Source: Roseburia sp. (GTDB taxonomy: Bacteria > Bacillota > Clostridia > Christensenellales > Pumilibacteraceae). From it: a stretch of DNA of 64,000 nucleotides. The first letter of the stretch is position 1; every line of letters begins with the position of its first letter. The stretch lies in the NCBI GenBank assembly GCA_023665905.1, contig JAMPDA010000002.1, positions 27,832 through 91,831 on the forward strand, read 5' to 3'. The notes below the pieces were generated by a model. That model did no database searches and was not told the DNA's origin. It saw nothing but the letters and a program-made list of their open reading frames with translations. The position numbers and the translations under genes were made by a program. This document shows, in pieces, positions 36,999 to 48,235 of this stretch.

Positions 36999-37074
36999 CG
37001 AGGTGTAGCGCAGTTGGTAGCGCGCATGGTTCGGGACCATGAGGCCGCGAGTTCGAGTCTCGCCACTTCGACCA
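36999..37074 (+). tRNA. tRNA-Pro(CGG), integration target
   Basis: Acceptor CGAGGTG/CACTTCG, CATGG-TTCGGGA-CCATG anticodon arm, ACCA end. Confidence 0.97.
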
Positions 37075-37076
37075 CA
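37030..37076 (+). repeat. att core, left copy (3' part of tRNA-Pro from the anticodon loop)
   Basis: TTCGGGACCATGAGGCCGCGAGTTCGAGTCTCGCCACTTCGACCACA identical to 48010-48056. Confidence 0.95.
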
Positions 37077-37123
37077 TAGGGCGCTTGCCCGACCTAAGGA
37101 CCGTTCGACCGCGAACGGTCTTT

Positions 37124-38029
37124 TTAATTGCGCGGCTCGAGAACAGCATTGAGCTTTGCCGCTTCGCGCAGACTGTAGTCGATACTTACATCGCTGTATA
37201 TGTCCGCAGTGGTGGCGATCTCCGAATGTCCGAGCCAGGTCTGCACGACTTTCATCGGGATATCCGCCTCCAGGGCACGTGTCGCGAACGTATGTCGCAG
37301 GTCGTGCAGTGTATGGTTGGCGCAGTATTTTTTAAAGTTCTTTGATACGTAATCCGGTTGAAAGGGGAACAGCGCGCCGGTGTTCGGAAGCTCCGGCAAA
37401 AGCCGTTGTATGCCGTCGAATATCGGGATATACCGGTCGGATAGAACCGTCTTAGTGCCGCGAATGTGAATGACGTGCTTTTGCTCGTCGATGTCCTCGC
37501 GGTGAACGGCGAGCGCTTCGTTGCGGCGACATCCGGAATACAGGCAGAACAGATAATAATGCTCGAGCTTAGCTCCGTGTATCGCACGCATGAATTCGGA
37601 TTGTTCCTCGAGCGTCAGCGCTGTTCCTTTGTGTCGCTTCGCCTTGCAGCTCTTGATCTTCGACATCGGGTTATACTCGATCAACTGCTCTGCGACCGCT
37701 TGCCGGAACGCGCCGGAAAGCAAATTGTGCACACTTTCGCGCGTGCGCGGAGCCGGAATAGCGTTCAACACTTTCTGAATATCCATAGGTCGAACGTCCT
37801 TAAGCGGCAGGTCGTCGGGCAGGTTTGGAGCAATGTGCAGACGAATATTTCGCCTCATTTGCTTGAACGTTTCCGGCGCGACAGTGTTACTCTTGTAGAC
37901 GTCTATAAACGCACACAACCAGGCAAGCAGCGTCATTCCTTGCGTCGCCGGCTGTATGTCGGTGAGCCTGCCGAGCGCGCGTAGCGCTTCATCGAGCATA
38001 TGAAAAATGTCGGATAGTTCGTCGTTCAT
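37124..38029 (-). CDS. tyrosine recombinase (integrase)
   Basis: SGCRRNE (R), GTKT (K), HDLRH (HxxR), LGH and ADIY (Y) catalytic residues; adjacent to att. Confidence 0.96.
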   Translation of the reverse strand: MNDELSDIFHMLDEALRALGRLTDIQPATQGMTLLAWLCAFIDVYKSNTVAPETFKQMRRNIRLHIAPNLPDDLPLKDVRPMDIQKVLNAIPAPRTRESVHNLLSGAFRQAVAEQLIEYNPMSKIKSCKAKRHKGTALTLEEQSEFMRAIHGAKLEHYYLFCLYSGCRRNEALAVHREDIDEQKHVIHIRGTKTVLSDRYIPIFDGIQRLLPELPNTGALFPFQPDYVSKNFKKYCANHTLHDLRHTFATRALEADIPMKVVQTWLGHSEIATTADIYSDVSIDYSLREAAKLNAVLEPRN

Positions 38030-40241: not shown

Positions 40242-41585
40242 TCAGAAGGGAAGATCGTCATCATCATCGGATTGCAAACTCAAATCTAAGCGTAATTGTA
40301 TGAATTTCTTAACCGGACCGGGCTCTTTTGCGTCATCGGAAGATATCGGAGTGTCTTCATCGGGAACGCGTGCAGCCAAGTATTCTTGTACATACTTGTA
40401 TGCCTTTTTTCGAGATATGCATTTAAGCGATTTATTATGTAATCGTTCTTTCAGCTCGAGAAGCTTGAACGTAAACCCGACAGGATCTTCCACTTCTTTC
40501 AATCGACGTATAACATACTCATAAGCGGCGAGAATGTCCGAATCGATTTCCCATTCGTCTTTCGGCAGTTTGTACCAGGCGCCGTAGCCTTGCCCGAAGT
40601 GCATGTTTTTGATTAACGGCACAAGCACTTTAAACTGATAATACATCATCGGCGAGCCGTTTTTTGTGAGTTTCGTGACATACTTAAAAGCTTCGTGCCA
40701 AGACTGTCCCTCGATTTTGTCTATAACACAGCTATAACCTTGACGTCGAAATGAATTTAACATATGCATACTCACATTGTATTTACCGCACCACTTTTCG
40801 AGCTTGTTTTGATTAACGGCTATGCCGTTAAGAACATAATCGACGATTATTTTGTCGAGCCGTATGCGATTATACTTCAACGCGAGTATTTTCTGTATGA
40901 GTATCTCAAGATCGGAAAACTTGCGCGTAAATATTCCGCGACTGAAACTGTAATCGTTAGTAAATAACTTGTCTTCGGCGAGATCTTTCTTGAGCGCGAG
41001 TATGCAATGATAATGCGGGTGAAAACTATCCGGGTTTAAAACGATCTCTATGTTCCTATAACAGGCATAGAATCCGTAAGATGCAAAATCTATACCCGCG
41101 ACTTTAGAATTGCCGGTAAAATAGCGTATAACACTCTGAAATGCGCTCGACAAGCGATCGAGCGAATCTCGCAGACTGTCGATAGGACAGTTTGGAACGG
41201 TAAGCGTCATCATATAGAGGTCATGGTCTTTCACGACATCTTCGAATATTTTAGTAAAACGCTGTAATTGCGCTGCTTGTCGAAGATGTTGACAGTTGAC
41301 GCATAATCTGTCGTGGCATAGGAATATTTGCTGTACGTCAAAAACTTCCTGCATGTCATAATATTCACCACACCAGCGTTTATGGCAATTAAGCATGCGC
41401 TCCGCGTTCTTTTTGTACTGCTCGTCGTCGAGCTCGTCGGCGAGTTGACTGTAATATTCGGCATACACGTCGTTAAATGTAGTATTGTGATCGAGCTTGT
41501 CCACTTCGTCCGATGTTATTTCTATCGACGGCGGCGCTTCGAATACCGGGACAAGCTCCGGTTGTTTTTTCATCTTGTTACCCAT
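40242..41585 (-). CDS. HUH-superfamily rolling-circle replication initiator (Rep_1, pC194/pUB110-like)
   Basis: CHDRLCVNC, motif I MTLTVPN, motif II HPHYHCI, motif III EAFKYVTK, GYG near the end. Confidence 0.92.
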   Translation of the reverse strand: MGNKMKKQPELVPVFEAPPSIEITSDEVDKLDHNTTFNDVYAEYYSQLADELDDEQYKKNAERMLNCHKRWCGEYYDMQEVFDVQQIFLCHDRLCVNCQHLRQAAQLQRFTKIFEDVVKDHDLYMMTLTVPNCPIDSLRDSLDRLSSAFQSVIRYFTGNSKVAGIDFASYGFYACYRNIEIVLNPDSFHPHYHCILALKKDLAEDKLFTNDYSFSRGIFTRKFSDLEILIQKILALKYNRIRLDKIIVDYVLNGIAVNQNKLEKWCGKYNVSMHMLNSFRRQGYSCVIDKIEGQSWHEAFKYVTKLTKNGSPMMYYQFKVLVPLIKNMHFGQGYGAWYKLPKDEWEIDSDILAAYEYVIRRLKEVEDPVGFTFKLLELKERLHNKSLKCISRKKAYKYVQEYLAARVPDEDTPISSDDAKEPGPVKKFIQLRLDLSLQSDDDDDLPF

Positions 41586-42695: not shown

Positions 42696-42960
42696 GAGGA
42701 TCCTCCGAACAGGGCATTGTAGCTCCGGTCGTTGACACAGCTTGTCCGCACCGTAACCGTTTGCGCTGAAGTCGTCGATGTCGTTTATACCATTTATCGA
42801 TCAGTTTAAATGTCCTGCACATATTGCGTCGGACATACGATAAAAAGATATCCACGTCGGCTTCTGGCATGTAGTCTACGGTATCGTACACACAGCGATA
42901 CGTCTGTTTGTAGCGTTCGAATACCTCGTCAATAATGTCGTTCTTAGAGAGATCTATCAT
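42679..42960 (-). CDS. 93-aa hypothetical protein coupled to the ATPase gene
   Basis: Start MIDLSKND overlaps the ATPase stop; operon packing. Confidence 0.65.
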   Translation of the reverse strand: MIDLSKNDIIDEVFERYKQTYRCVYDTVDYMPEADVDIFLSYVRRNMCRTFKLIDKWYKRHRRLQRKRLRCGQAVSTTGATMPCSEDPHGEEV

Positions 42961-43778
42961 CGTTTTTGCTCCTTTTTGTAGAAACCGTCCGGAAGCTCGT
43001 CGTCGAAATCCGACAGCCATTTAATGTAGCCGTCAAAATTATCTTCGGTGAGCTCCGCAGCGGAGTAGTCTATATCGCTGTCCAAATGCCCTTTGTAAAA
43101 CTTCGGTTTACAGCTGTAACTGTCGTAAAAATCGAATATGGGCGCGTCGACCACAAACTCGCTCTCGGTGTAGCAGCTCGTGTCGCGCTTCCCGCTCGAG
43201 CAATACGCTTCGTATTGCTGTAAATTGTCCATATGCCGGAGCGTCCAGACGAACCGGCACGGACGGTTCCACCTGTCGTAACCGGCTATAACCAGCTTGA
43301 CAACCTCGATGAACTGCGCCAGCTCGCGGACATTAAGGTCGATCAACCCGACACGTTGTGTATCCAGGTATATATCTAACCAGTTATGTCCGTGCTGCTC
43401 ATACCAGCGACTTTGCCAATCGGGGTAATTAGCATTTCTGCGGCTGTTGAGATACTTCTGCGCTTCGGTTATGCAGATACACTCGTACGGCAGATTGAAA
43501 TGTGTATCAACATAAGCGTTGGCAAAGCCCAATCGGTACGGGTTTATCCGGCGTGTATAACGCGGGTAATATCCGAACCGGCGAAAAACCATGTCGTAAT
43601 TAGCGGACACGCAATGCTCGGGGATCGTCGTTATATTGGCAAACCCCGACGCCTGCTTCTGTAACAGCTCACGACGCATTGCGCGATTGCGGTCTTTATC
43701 GTACGCGGTCTTATACGCAATAGCGGTCAATAACGCTGTTTTTCCGGTTCGCGGCGGCGCAAAAATTATGGTTATCAT
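42957..43778 (-). CDS. Zot/pI-like (inovirus morphogenesis-type) P-loop ATPase
   Basis: Start MITIIF (ATGA overlap); Walker A APPRTGKT, Walker B-like CICITEAQKYLNSR, HGHNWLDIYLDTQRVGLIDLNVREL matching the Zot HxHxxxD...TQ....ID..xR motif. Confidence 0.85.
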   Translation of the reverse strand: MITIIFAPPRTGKTALLTAIAYKTAYDKDRNRAMRRELLQKQASGFANITTIPEHCVSANYDMVFRRFGYYPRYTRRINPYRLGFANAYVDTHFNLPYECICITEAQKYLNSRRNANYPDWQSRWYEQHGHNWLDIYLDTQRVGLIDLNVRELAQFIEVVKLVIAGYDRWNRPCRFVWTLRHMDNLQQYEAYCSSGKRDTSCYTESEFVVDAPIFDFYDSYSCKPKFYKGHLDSDIDYSAAELTEDNFDGYIKWLSDFDDELPDGFYKKEQKR

Positions 43779-45175
43779 GAATCTTTCCCTCGCCGGATAA
43801 TCGCCCGCACAAGCCGCACAGGAGCCATGATGAGCCATAGCAGACCTTTGCCGATCCACACCAGGCACTGTAGTAGCAATGGTCCGATAACCGGCAAAAA
43901 CAATAAAATTACAAATATAACGAAAATGACAACAACCCAGGACACCCAGCTGTATGAAGAACCGCCAAAAACTTTGTTAAAGAAACTTCCGATAACCCCC
44001 AAAACATCAGTAAAACCGTCCCAAAACTTTTGCCAGGCTGAACGAGAATCTGTGTCGTAAATTCGATCGTTTTGATTTGTATTATCGGGGATAAAACTTC
44101 CAAGATATGTATCGTTGACAACACCCAGCTCATATACCATTTCCTCGCTTACAAATTTAAGAGATACCATTGTAACGGCGGTGACAATAGTATGCCGTAA
44201 AGTTCCCACCGGATAATTTAATGCTACATAAGGTTCCGTTAAATATCTCAAAACCCACTGTTTATCAATTATTTTAGCTTTGGCGCTGTCCTCCAATTGC
44301 TCCGTATCGAGAAAATCGGCAACGGATTGTATGCAATTCCACGTGTATTTCACCGCATGCGTTCCGCCGGAAGTATTGGTGTCCACGTCTGTATAAGATA
44401 AATGCACAGTCTTAGATGCCGTATTTAATACCTTATCGACTACATAAGGATACGTAGCTGATGAAATCAAATGAGTTTCCGACTCATAATACACGTCCGC
44501 TTCAATGAGATTATCTATTTTATAGTAGGTGGAAAAAGCAACGAAATTATTATCTACAGAAGTTAAAAGACCGGACGCATAACGGACAAGCCCGATATAC
44601 TCGTCCGTTATAGTTATGACTTCTACATCATGCCTGTTATAGCTGGTGTTATCGATTACCCACTCCGCACCGACAGGGTAAGCTATTTCGGTTATGGGAG
44701 TTGAGCCGTTCTGAGCACCGTCGATATCCGGCTCCCATGCTCGATAAATAGACGTAATATCATAACGCCGCACAGAATTATAGGATACAGCGACGCCTTG
44801 AACCTTATACTTGAACAACGTGTTATAATTTCCCAAATATGTCAAATCATAACGCTGTCGTTTGACATTATCTGTTGCAAGATTAATGCCGGTTGCTCGC
44901 ACATCATTTTTCCCGGACGGTTGATATACGTATACAACAATGCCTTGCGTATCTGTTTCCGCGATCTGTATTATTTGTAAAGAATAATCGCCGGACTTTA
45001 CGGGATAATCGGCTATATTTAAACCTGTATTGGAAAAATCGTCAAGGACAGTGACGATATCTTCTTCCGCATGCGCGCTCGGTAGAACCGGCACGGCGAG
45101 CAAGAACATCATAAGCAGTACTGCGCACAATATTGCGGTCAGGATCTTACGTAAGTTTGTCTTTATTGAGATCAT
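43775..45175 (-). CDS. 466-aa membrane-anchored protein (signal peptide, ectodomain, C-terminal TMs and basic tail)
   Basis: Signal ...LLAVPVLPSAHA; C-terminal WVVVIFVIFVILLFLPVIGPLLL..., RLVRAIIRRGK; GAGGTG RBS. Confidence 0.85.
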   Translation of the reverse strand: MISIKTNLRKILTAILCAVLLMMFLLAVPVLPSAHAEEDIVTVLDDFSNTGLNIADYPVKSGDYSLQIIQIAETDTQGIVVYVYQPSGKNDVRATGINLATDNVKRQRYDLTYLGNYNTLFKYKVQGVAVSYNSVRRYDITSIYRAWEPDIDGAQNGSTPITEIAYPVGAEWVIDNTSYNRHDVEVITITDEYIGLVRYASGLLTSVDNNFVAFSTYYKIDNLIEADVYYESETHLISSATYPYVVDKVLNTASKTVHLSYTDVDTNTSGGTHAVKYTWNCIQSVADFLDTEQLEDSAKAKIIDKQWVLRYLTEPYVALNYPVGTLRHTIVTAVTMVSLKFVSEEMVYELGVVNDTYLGSFIPDNTNQNDRIYDTDSRSAWQKFWDGFTDVLGVIGSFFNKVFGGSSYSWVSWVVVIFVIFVILLFLPVIGPLLLQCLVWIGKGLLWLIMAPVRLVRAIIRRGKDS

Positions 45176-46875: not shown

Positions 46876-46972
46876 AAAAAATCCCCACCGCTTCATGGCA
46901 TACGGCACGCCATTATAATTAGATGGGGTCTTACTTATATACCGCCGATACCCCGTCACTGCGGTCAAGAAA

Positions 46973-47443
46973 TTACAAGCCGATATCGTCTTCATCCGAC
47001 GCGATAGGAACGTCATCATCGACTATACTGGTTATGCCGAGCAGCGGATTAGCAAGATCGCGAAATACCGAAGAAAACCGTTCTTTAACAGCAAATTCTA
47101 TTTCGTAATCAGGCGCAAACGGAGATTTCGCAAACACGCCGGCATAAGTAACATCGCGCTTCTTTTTCTTCGAATAATACGTTACGGCACGGATTTCGAC
47201 ATTAAATTCGACCTCAGGCACAGTTCGTAACGCCTTTTTACCATAATAGTCGATGTGTCCCTTAACGCTGTCCCAACGCGGCGAAATGCCGACGTTAATG
47301 AAATCGGGGTCGCCGAACGGGTCGAGAATGACGGTTGATATTGCACTCCGCTTTTGCCCGTCGTCGGCTTTAAATTCGAACAGCCTCATTACAGCCGTAG
47401 CGGTAAGGACTTCCGCCGGTTCTTGCACTTGTTTCTTTTCCAT
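46973..47443 (-). CDS. putative ssDNA-binding protein
   Basis: Start MEKKQV after AAAGGAG; beta-strand/aromatic pattern, acidic tail DDDVPIASDEDDIGL; located in an RCR element. Confidence 0.55.
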   Translation of the reverse strand: MEKKQVQEPAEVLTATAVMRLFEFKADDGQKRSAISTVILDPFGDPDFINVGISPRWDSVKGHIDYYGKKALRTVPEVEFNVEIRAVTYYSKKKKRDVTYAGVFAKSPFAPDYEIEFAVKERFSSVFRDLANPLLGITSIVDDDVPIASDEDDIGL

Positions 47444-47505
47444 AATTACTCCTTTGCCGATACATACCCTCGGTCGCGGGTTTATGTATTTTTTGCCTTT
47501 ACGGC

Positions 47506-47550
47506 TGGAGGCGCGGGCGGGAGTTGAACCCGCCATGTCCCGGTCGCGCC
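47506..47550 (-). ncRNA. 45-nt tRNA-like minihelix (acceptor plus T arm, tRNA-Cys-like end)
   Basis: GGCGCG-ACCGGGACAT-GGCGGG-TTCAACT-CCCGCC-CGCGCC-TCCA: 6+6 bp stems, consensus T-loop, U discriminator, CCA. Confidence 0.6.
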
Positions 47551-47634
47551 ATGACCATGCCCGCAAGGAGGAGCAGGCACGGTACAGAGGGAAGATGAGA
47601 GCCCGTCATGCCGATAGCCCAGCAAGAAAAACTA

Positions 47635-47940
47635 TTAAAGACGTTGAGCACGTTCAACGCCGGCACGGAACGATCTTTTATTCTCGTCGCGCACGGGAAC
47701 GCGCTTGCCGGACTTTGCCGCGCCATACCCGACACCGGCATGAAACGCCGCTTTTTGACTGTCGGTGTGTTGCGACACACTGCGCGCCGGGGAACGTTTA
47801 CCGCCGGCACATAACGAATTTAACCGTTCCTGCGCGTACCGACGTTGTCCGTCCGTCAACTTCGGATCGTTCACGCGTCGCTCGTAATACGCGCATTTCT
47901 GTTGAACGGAGTATGTCTTATCCGCTTTTTTATTTGCCAT
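47635..47940 (-). CDS. 101-aa basic hypothetical protein, first gene of the minus-strand operon
   Basis: AAAGGA RBS; Arg/Lys-rich; fills the space next to the right att. Confidence 0.7.
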   Translation of the reverse strand: MANKKADKTYSVQQKCAYYERRVNDPKLTDGQRRYAQERLNSLCAGGKRSPARSVSQHTDSQKAAFHAGVGYGAAKSGKRVPVRDENKRSFRAGVERAQRL

Positions 47941-48009
47941 AATTAGTCCTTTGCCCTTAACCCCATTGGGCGCGAGGTGATTATCATTAACAGCTTAAGC
48001 CGGTTATTT

Positions 48010-48056
48010 TTCGGGACCATGAGGCCGCGAGTTCGAGTCTCGCCACTTCGACCACA
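48010..48056 (+). repeat. att core, right copy
   Basis: Identical to 37030-37076. Confidence 0.95.
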
Positions 48057-48103
48057 CAGGGCCGTTAGCCCGACCTAAGACCGTTCGACCGCGAACGGTC
48101 TTT

Positions 48104-48235
48104 TTAATTGTGCGGCTCGAGAACAGCATTGAGCTTTGCCGCTTCGCGCAGACTGTAGTCGATACTTACATCGCTGTATATGTCCGCAGTGGTGGCAATC
48201 TCCGAATGCCCGAGCCAGGTCTGCACGACCTTCAT
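48104..48235 (-). pseudogene. integrase C-terminal fragment (43 aa)
   Basis: MKVVQTWLGHSEIATTADIY...LEPHN versus ...LEPRN in the intact copy; three differences are synonymous. Confidence 0.9.

Follow-up and report, generated by a model that had tools for sequence, protein, structure and literature searches.

The window analyzed here is a 64,000-nucleotide (nt) stretch of a Roseburia sp. contig (JAMPDA010000002.1 of assembly GCA_023665905.1, positions 27,832 to 91,831 of the forward strand), and it includes an inovirus-like prophage of about 11 kb that is integrated in tRNA-Pro. The subject of this report is a 45-nt tRNA-like element at positions 47550-47506 of the minus strand, made of an acceptor stem and a T arm. 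It is located in a spacer of about 190 nt that runs from the gene for a 101-amino-acid (aa) protein (47940-47635) to the gene for a 156-aa protein (47443-46973), all on the minus strand, and it occurs once in the prophage and once in the host genome. The prophage also codes for large Flg_new-repeat and membrane proteins, and the remnant of a second, related element follows it. The main features of the prophage and its attachment (att) sites are as follows.

37030-37255 and 48010-48235: att direct repeats of 226 nt, starting in the anticodon loop of tRNA-Pro(cgg)
37124-38029, minus strand: tyrosine integrase (Pfam/PHROG)
40242-41585, minus strand: Rep_1 rolling-circle initiator (Pfam/PHROG)
42957-43868, minus strand: Zot/pI-like ATPase (Pfam/PHROG)
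46973-47443, minus strand: downstream cistron P0001, a 156-aa protein with an acidic C-terminal tip like that of single-stranded DNA-binding (SSB) proteins
47449-47480, minus strand: 5' leader of the 156-aa gene, with the Shine-Dalgarno (SD) sequence AAAGGAG at 47455-47449
47635-47940, minus strand: upstream cistron P0002, a basic 101-aa protein (open reading frame [ORF] with an SD sequence)

Read on the minus strand, positions 47550-47506 give GGCGCG-ACCGGGACAU-GGCGGG-UUCAACU-CCCGCC-CGCGCC-U-CCA, exactly the sequence and structure that a preliminary description of this stretch had reported. The element folds into two 6-bp helices that are able to stack into 12 bp, capped by a 7-nt T-type loop. 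Its parts and immediate surroundings, in minus-strand order, are the following.

47601-47626, minus strand: conserved block CUUGCUGGGCUAUCGGCAUGACGGGC, just past the upstream stop codon (found by eye)
47554-47583, minus strand: upstream GC-rich hairpin ACCGUGCCUGC-UCCUCCUU-GCGGGCAUGGU, without a U-tract (minimum free energy [MFE] folds)
47552-47551, minus strand: A-2 and U-1, preceding the acceptor stem; RNase P is proposed to cut between 47551 and 47550
47545-47550, minus strand: 5' strand of the acceptor stem, GGCGCG, pairing with 47515-47510
47535-47544, minus strand: 10-nt linker ACCGGGACAU, in place of the D and anticodon arms
47516-47534, minus strand: T-arm mimic, a 6-bp stem GGCGGG/CCCGCC (47534-47529 with 47521-47516) and the 7-nt loop UUCAACU
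47506-47515, minus strand: 3' strand of the acceptor stem, CGCGCC, then discriminator U (47509) and an encoded CCA (47508-47506)
47495-47505, minus strand: short hairpin GCC-GUAAA-GGC right after the CCA, followed by an A-rich tract (folds)

The 12-nt 3' strand of the window element (47521-47516 plus the acceptor strand) is fully stacked, with 12 of 12 positions paired. The core of the upstream hairpin stops 3 nt before the first nucleotide of the acceptor stem (G+1), or 1 nt before it if two outer pairs are included. The linker contains a GG at 47541-47540 that is invariant across five short forms of the element ("mini-forms") in the RNAalifold alignment described below; this GG may mimic G18G19 of the D-loop and so complete a tRNA elbow. 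The whole spacer is strongly structured (z = -2.45), and the fold stability of the element alone is unremarkable (z = -1.3 in an 81-nt, GC-rich context). Because the single-sequence fold is not unusual, the case for a real element rests on comparison with relatives.

By their defining tests, the element lies outside the tRNA, transfer-messenger RNA (tmRNA), and mascRNA families. It has the acceptor/T-arm half of a canonical tRNA (the stack, the 7-nt T-loop, the discriminator, and CCA), while the D and anticodon arms are missing, with 10 nt between the acceptor 5' strand and the T stem. ARAGORN finds only tRNA-Gly, tRNA-Pro, and tRNA-Arg in the window and does not call the element, and Rfam gives no RF00005 match on it at E ≤ 10. 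The best Rfam match on the element, to mascRNA-menRNA (RF01684), is weak, with 19.6 bits (E = 3) and a gathering score of 42.5; the tRNA and Rfam searches proposed in the preliminary description yielded no ARAGORN call and only sub-threshold Rfam scores. The tRNA-like domain of tmRNA needs G3-U70, A73, and a tag frame; the window has C3-G70 and U73, no tmRNA-model match falls on the element, and the host tmRNA is located elsewhere.

Other candidate identities were tried and rejected. An intrinsic terminator does not fit, there being no U-tract and a helix that runs into UCCAGCC; a scan of 46900-48100 found no terminator-like site on the minus strand, the sole match (47403-47426) being on the plus strand inside the 156-aa gene. 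No sigma-70-type promoter was found around the element on either strand. A 36-codon ORF (47609-47499), hydrophobic and then basic, overlaps the element, and its frame is not kept in relatives: stops fall in all or most forward frames across the element at the related loci L018, L371, L372, and L013. No nested double pseudoknot of an HDV-like or theta ribozyme could be drawn by eye after the CCA. An att site or displaced tRNA 3' fragment was rejected as well, as the sequence is unique in the genome and away from the boundaries at 37030 and 48010. The 29-nt stretch from the T arm to CCA occurs once in the 1.82-Mb genome, and the species-representative genome collection contains no exact match to it. 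Among the 3' ends of host tRNAs, the nearest shows 6 mismatches over 26 nt, and that of tRNA-Cys shows 8. What the element does have is one trait of the plant-mitochondrial t-elements, a tRNA-like fold in an intergenic spacer between co-oriented genes, and, at the sequence level, the attributes of an RNase P minihelix substrate: a 12-bp stack, UCCA, and U-1.

Relatives were sought through the downstream gene. Homologues of P0001 were traced in nine other genomes of the genus or family, in three metagenome contigs (70-73% identity), and by a profile search that collected 62 proteins. A single-sequence search of the genome and viral collections with P0001 gave nothing, and the profile gave only already known loci there. 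A scan with the GC-rich leader pattern CCCGCGACCGAGGN{1,8}ATCGGC gave one true locus among the matches listed, chance matches in high-GC genomes being dominant.

Fifteen further loci have the element: 14 sibling prophages or contigs, mostly from Christensenellaceae, and one phage-like contig. At 13 non-redundant loci it lies directly upstream of the homologue of the 156-aa gene (L010, L011, L012, L013, L017, L018, L019, L363, L367, L369, L371, L372, and L373). The L025 element is found in the prophage of locus L005, between a gene for a small basic protein and one for a 456-aa membrane protein. The element of the phage-like contig, L097, is located 3 nt past a genuine tRNA-Leu; it is a mini-form of 43 nt, GGCACG ACCGGAAAU UGUGG UUCGACU CCACA ACGUGCC A CCA, very like that of the window. 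Lengths in the family range from 43 to 91 nt. The center of the element is a linker of about 10 nt in the window, L019, L097, L363, and L369 and otherwise consists of one or two irregular hairpins, which in L011, L013, and L017 are D-arm-like. No sibling element is called a tRNA by ARAGORN or Rfam. Blocks resembling CUUGCUGGGCUAUCGGCAUGACGGGC, namely GCUNNGCUAUCGGCANNACGGGC, were recognized (by eye only) in L011, L013, L363, L369, and L365.

Sixteen non-identical members were aligned in a fixed register, comprising a 7-nt 5' strand, 7 nt before the loop, the loop, a 12-nt 3' strand, the discriminator, and the last 3 nt. Over the 11 core pairs and 16 sequences, 95.5% of the cells are paired, compared to 42-58% after a shift of the partners by 1-3 columns; the choice of the acceptor 5' strands was made partly by eye, which inflates the pairing in the acceptor helix. 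The T-stem register is free of any such choice, and in the T helix (five pairs tested) 95% of the cells are paired, with compensatory changes in four of the five pairs. Taken over both helices, compensatory double changes occur at 9 of the 11 core pairs (36 cells), the outcome of the covariation check across siblings that the preliminary description had named. None of 500 shuffles reached the observed pairing values, a significance that is overstated because the 16 sequences are related. RNAalifold, applied to the natural sequences of the five mini-forms, independently arrives at the 6+6 helix, with compensation at 7 of 13 pairs. There are G-U pairs in about 16 cells, and the fold therefore belongs to the sense strand. 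A covariance model (R1) built from the first eight sequences set identical 5' ends in five of six independent loci that had been found by the profile. The comparative evidence thus indicates that the structure of the element is real and under selection, and the same architecture at the same site in siblings bears out the earlier view of it as a tRNA-like acceptor/T-arm minihelix.

The alignment also bears on the origin of the element. Since the long forms at L011, L013, and L017 keep D-arm-like segments, a full tRNA is the probable ancestor of the family, of which selection has maintained the top half only. Those segments could also be taken for signs of a relic in decay, left over from a phage tRNA gene or a former att site and retained only through chance or hitch-hiking; fragments of tRNA 3' ends are common at integration sites. 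We find a relic scarcely credible: compensatory changes hold both helices and the 12-bp total in diverged siblings while the center decays, no host tRNA has the 3' end of the element, its sequence occurs once in the genome, and an att-type fragment would be without a 5' acceptor strand. The real att repeats are elsewhere (37030-37255 and 48010-48235), in keeping with the earlier statement that the element is unrelated to the tRNA-Pro att. Of the "collapsed tRNA/att relic" that had been suggested, the att part fails, the element having no host tRNA match, not being at a boundary, and being under structural selection; the collapsed tRNA is a probable history, although not in the sense of a dead relic.

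What selection has kept corresponds to features by which RNase P recognizes its substrates. The 12-bp acceptor/T stack is the ruler by which RNase P finds its cleavage site, hairpins that combine an acceptor stem with a T stem and T-loop are efficient model substrates, the T-loop is required for accurate cleavage, and RCCA pairs with the P15 loop (PMC11143913). In 15 of the 16 members, the 3' strand from loop to discriminator is 12 nt long (13 nt in L017), and pairing extends to 10-12 of these 12 positions in 15/16. The junction between acceptor and T helices shifts among 5+7, 6+6, and 7+5 while the total of 12 bp stays. U-1 is present in 15/16 members, compared to 23/43 host tRNA genes, and A-2 is present in 13/16, compared to 17/43. 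The 3' triplet is CCA in 10 members and fits C-N-A in 14. An RNase P RNA is present in the host (122.9 bits), and CCA is encoded in each of the 43 host tRNA genes. The discriminator (U, G, or A) and the acceptor sequence differ among siblings; the tRNA-Cys-like set G1-G2-C3/U73 to which the preliminary description had drawn attention is not conserved, and a decoy specific for cysteinyl-tRNA synthetase is unlikely because of this variation.

Excision of such a minihelix might instead yield a trans-acting small RNA that is stable, about 45 nt long, and ends in CCA. Such an RNA could be a decoy for enzymes that sense the acceptor end or elbow or for defense nucleases, or for CCA-adding or aminoacylation enzymes. 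The encoded NCCA, the T-loop, and the possible GG elbow mimic would suit it, and the hairpin right after the CCA could define or protect its 3' end; RNAs of the mascRNA type are freed from their transcripts by RNase P plus RNase Z. The proposal is also compatible with cleavage by RNase P, so that it is as much an addition to a cis-acting signal as a rival of it. We nevertheless regard it as unlikely. Acceptor and discriminator vary freely among siblings, which leaves no single synthetase identity, and CCA is absent from 6 of the 16 members. No RNase Z equivalog was found in the host (G000) or in eight congeners, the best score being 38 bits against a cutoff of 293; a 3' cut would lack its enzyme in the host genus, and it is doubtful for that reason that RNase P plus RNase Z could free a 45-nt RNA in this host. 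The replacement of the element in some siblings by a hammerhead-like motif, described below, fits cleavage in cis and not a tRNA mimic acting in trans.

The element does not stand by itself in these phages but appears to be the middle of a cassette. In 15 of 16 members, a GC-rich hairpin ends 1-4 nt before G+1; it has no U-tract and is not terminator-like, and in L097 a genuine tRNA takes its place. On the other side, 14 of the 16 members have a GCC...GGC hairpin immediately past the 3' triplet, mostly with a GNRA loop and leading into an A-rich stretch; it is weaker in L025 (GCCU...AGGU), and L019 has none. The hairpin after the CCA is also found behind tRNA-like elements and genuine tRNAs in other Clostridia and in phage contigs.

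Several observations on this hairpin outside the family are recorded here in their own right. In Clostridia tRNA operons, genuine tRNAs are directly followed by an ACCA-GCCGAAAGGC-AAA hairpin, with examples in L049 (19-76), L085 (4197-4254), L066 (7938-7995), L069 (3050-3183), and L044 (4440-4524), and after the tRNA-Ala of Mogibacterium (L053/L061/L086). L069 also has a tandem partial copy of the 3' half of tRNA-Phe with the same hairpin. Large IMG/VR phage contigs contain over-long tRNA-like elements or bare T-arm/acceptor 3' fragments that receive no tRNA call from ARAGORN (L102, 6281-6374; L103, 2606-2701; L104, 7759-7870; L109, 4644-4761; L110, 11002-11073; and L111, 4312-4372); the one in L104 is called "tmRNA." Each of these is then followed by ACCA-GCCGAAAGGC-WAAUAAAUU, an SD sequence, and ATG. 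A further tRNA-like gene, of the tRNA-Arg(tct) type, lies in L013 (1328-1416, minus strand), about 40 nt downstream of the 156-aa homologue; it has 22 nt in place of the 7-nt anticodon loop and may be a prophage junction.

At some sibling loci (L003, L005, and L361/L362), the slot before the conserved leader (CCCGYGACCGAGGG..AUCGG, then the SD sequence) is occupied by a different motif, CCGGU-CUGANGAG-stem II-CGAAAC-stem III-GUC-ACCGG. Its positions are as follows.

L003, G021:C8:28354-28432, minus strand: swap motif
L005/L374, G013:C2:118948-119008: swap motif
L361 and L362, about 1880-1965: swap motif

By hand reading, this motif contains the full hammerhead core: C3-A9 (CUGANGA), G10.1-C11.1, G12 A13 A14, A15.1-U16.1, and C17 (GUC). 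Stems II and III covary between L003 and L005, where the sequences differ and the pairing stays, and the unconstrained MFE fold is an exact type I three-way junction (z of -2.9 to -3.6). In 119 genomes of the family, the pattern is limited to this site, and a reversed control gave no matches. We call the motif hammerhead-like because Rfam does not call it. A comparison of L361, which has the hammerhead-like motif, with L373, which has the tRNA-like element, shows that the flanks are orthologous, with 81%, 53%, and 58% protein identity. The RNA that follows the GUC site can refold into a 5'-terminal CCGG...CCGG hairpin and then AAUAA, which parallels the GCC-GNRA-GGC hairpin and AAAUAAA 3' of the tRNA-like element. 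The L005/L025 prophage has both devices, the hammerhead-like motif before the 156-aa homologue and the tRNA-like element before a different gene. Perreault et al. (2011, PMC3088659) proposed that hammerheads flanking prophage genes divide long phage transcripts into mRNAs of gene length. Our strongest argument is the occupation of a single orthologous site by two unrelated, putative RNA-cleavage devices; it indicates that the element acts in cis and at the RNA level, as a signal for cleavage. A third type of module was seen in the same slot, a long hairpin followed by GCUA...UAGC-AAAUAAA (L365/L366 at about 1850-1960, L006, L008, L009, and L016), which has no Rfam match.

The swap also bears on the possibility that the element acts on the single-stranded DNA (ssDNA) of the phage, as a minus-strand (single-strand) origin or a packaging hairpin. 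An inovirus-like prophage with Rep_1, a Zot/pI-like ATPase, and an integrase is a setting for such a function, the element would be in the sense orientation on the packaged strand given that the genes are on the minus strand, and the spacer is structured throughout (z = -2.45). We consider a role in ssDNA very unlikely, since the features kept (T-loop, 12-bp ruler, NCCA, and U-1) are specific to tRNA and needless for a DNA hairpin, and since a hammerhead, which acts only as RNA, seems to fill the slot in siblings. Similar tRNA-like elements with CCA-hairpin-AAAUAAA occur in viral contigs of 34-126 kb, far above the genome size of filamentous phages, and the closest mini-form adjoins a genuine tRNA in a phage-like contig. 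Single-strand origins of the ssoA type have an RSB and, in a terminal loop, a CS-6 box (TAGCGT); the 194-nt spacer sequence contains no TAGCG, although this is a weak test.

The leader of the 156-aa gene, which is kept in sequence across siblings, including those with the hammerhead-like motif, raises another candidate function. In this leader, CCC (47480-78) can pair with GGG (47469-67), and CCGA (47473-70) can pair with UCGG (47460-57), so that an H-type pseudoknot could form, or hairpins in its place; the pseudoknot comes from hand reading, and RNAfold gives only the hairpins. The leader box may be a translational operator, and a box related to it, GGUNUGNAUCGGCAAAGG, recurs upstream of the Zot-like gene (43845-43862). 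Located 62 nt upstream of a strong SD sequence and beside this conserved pseudoknot-like leader, the element might be a part of the leader that is never cleaved, serving as a folding insulator, as a binding site through which the 156-aa or the basic 101-aa protein regulates itself, or as a ribosome-standby element. Phage ssDNA-binding proteins commonly autoregulate via structured leaders, as do T4 gene 32 and Ff gene V. Even so, such a function is quite improbable. The L025 element precedes a different gene and a hammerhead-like motif can precede the 156-aa homologue, protein binding leaves both the tRNA-specific determinants and the hammerhead swap unexplained, and the SSB label of the downstream protein has no support from fold searches.

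Among the three functions that the preliminary description had offered, an mRNA-processing signal is thus the best fit, by virtue of the 12-bp ruler, U-1/A-2, NCCA, the flanking hairpins, and the hammerhead-like replacement. We assign a probability of roughly 60% to the reading of the element as a signal for RNase P cleavage in cis, by which the flanking phage mRNAs acquire structured ends. In the mechanism that we propose from these sequence comparisons, host RNase P would take the tRNA "top half" in the polycistronic phage transcript for a tRNA precursor and would cut between U-1 (47551) and G+1 (47550). Because hairpins flank the element, a cut at this point would leave an upstream RNA that ends in a hairpin and a downstream RNA that starts with a closed helix. 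The mRNA of the 101-aa gene would end in the strong hairpin plus 1-3 nt, which may guard it against 3' exonucleases, and the mRNA from the 156-aa gene onward would start with a paired 5' end, formed by the minihelix and the GNRA-type hairpin, which may guard it against 5'-end-dependent decay. We favor a single RNase P cut, with the minihelix presumably kept as the structured 5' end of the downstream mRNA. In the sibling phages, a self-cleaving hammerhead-like motif would do the same job at the same site.

Several points weigh against cleavage by RNase P as the function. CCA is replaced in 6 of the 16 members (by AAA, CCG, CGA, CUA, or CAA), and two members have non-consensus T-loops, UCCGACU and UGCAACU. 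With no RNase Z equivalog in the host, the 3' side of the element would lack the usual partner enzyme. The statistics of the alignment carry the two reservations given with them, the relatedness of the sequences behind the shuffles and the acceptor strands picked by eye. As for the swap, Rfam (15) gives no hammerhead match on the sibling motifs even at E ≤ 10 in 250-nt slices, and the hammerhead part of the argument comes from hand reading, MFE folds, and three sequences.

Downstream of the element, P0001 has no Pfam or PHROG match. Its AlphaFold2 model (pLDDT 83.5, pTM 0.74) consists mostly of beta strands with two helices and has no PDB or BFVD match at E ≤ 0.001; that P0001 might be an SSB is a guess from the acidic tail. 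The family to which it belongs is widespread in phages, as judged from the 62 homologues in the profile search. P0002 likewise has no Pfam or PHROG match. Siblings have a gene of about 90-110 aa in its slot, and the slot genes of one hammerhead-bearing and one tRNA-like-bearing sibling are 53% identical; the homology of the slot genes to P0002 itself consists only of shared motifs read in the L003 translation. Farther upstream, the phage-side arm of attR (47973-48054, plus strand) has a complement to the 3' acceptor strand of tRNA-Pro, CGAGGUG, and the attP of the excised phage would therefore resemble a closed pseudo-tRNA-Pro with a foreign 5' body. This tRNA-Pro fragment at attR (47973-48054) matches the tmRNA model with 18.6 bits (E = 2e-4).

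More generally, phages of gut Clostridia may use interchangeable intercistronic "punctuation cassettes," either a self-cleaving hammerhead or an anticodon-less tRNA mimic that would draw on the RNase P of the host, with the same end-protecting hairpins. We put this forward as a tentative idea that is, at present, improbable. Were it true, the window element would be a member of a modular, horizontally exchanged RNA-processing system, and the swap would be the first natural evidence for the role of phage hammerheads. Whether released or attached to the 5' end, the minihelix could then double as an acceptor-end decoy against tRNA-targeting defense. In any case, the occurrence of a hammerhead-like motif at an orthologous site amounts to a natural experiment on the old question of what self-cleaving ribozymes do in prophages, and it makes that question testable. 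As the element demonstrates, a class of tRNA-derived elements in gut phages escapes tRNA finders and Rfam; the element would also be a compact natural part for RNase-P-dependent transcript processing.

Processing signals that resemble tRNA are known already from plant mitochondria and from eukaryotic long non-coding RNAs (lncRNAs), and a few phage RNAs and operon mRNAs are known substrates of RNase P. Our searches of the literature turned up no paper on a conserved minihelix cassette that covaries, lacks an anticodon, and punctuates a phage operon. Among phage and operon RNAs, the P1/P7 C4 antisense precursor, the phi80 M3 RNA, and polycistronic mRNAs (Li and Altman 2003) are cut by RNase P via tRNA-like features (PMC11143913). 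They belong to E. coli systems and are either small regulatory RNAs or sites that resemble tRNA weakly, and for none of them did the searches find an acceptor/T-arm cassette with flanking hairpins described. The mascRNA/MEN-beta RNAs (RF01684) share with the element a tRNA-like fold inside a longer transcript, and mascRNA is excised by tRNA-processing enzymes; they differ in being eukaryotic, in keeping a hairpin like an anticodon arm, in receiving CCA after RNase Z cleavage, and in serving the 3'-end formation of an lncRNA. Prophage hammerheads (PMC3088659) share the intercistronic position in a prophage operon and the proposed cutting of the transcript, but the window element has no ribozyme core and would borrow the RNase P of the host.

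The closest analogues appear to be the t-elements in function and the synthetic minihelix RNase P substrates in structure. The minihelix substrates (McClain, Guerrier-Takada, and Altman; PMC11143913) have the same 12-bp coaxial helix, 7-nt T-loop, RCCA, single-stranded leader, and U-1. They are synthetic, however, whereas the window element occurs naturally, its two helices are separated by a bulge-like linker of 10 nt in which a GG is conserved, and it continues 3' into mRNA. According to Forner et al. (2007, PMC1920247), the t-elements of plant mitochondria are proposed cis signals at which RNase P and/or RNase Z would make endonucleolytic cuts. They too are tRNA-like structures in mRNA precursors, next to 5' or 3' termini, a form of tRNA punctuation without a functional tRNA. 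The t-elements are organellar and have mapped transcript ends, whereas the window element belongs to a phage and is known from its sequence; compared to them, it consists of acceptor and T arm only, with a 10-nt linker, an encoded CCA, and two conserved flanking hairpins, in a host that apparently has no RNase Z.

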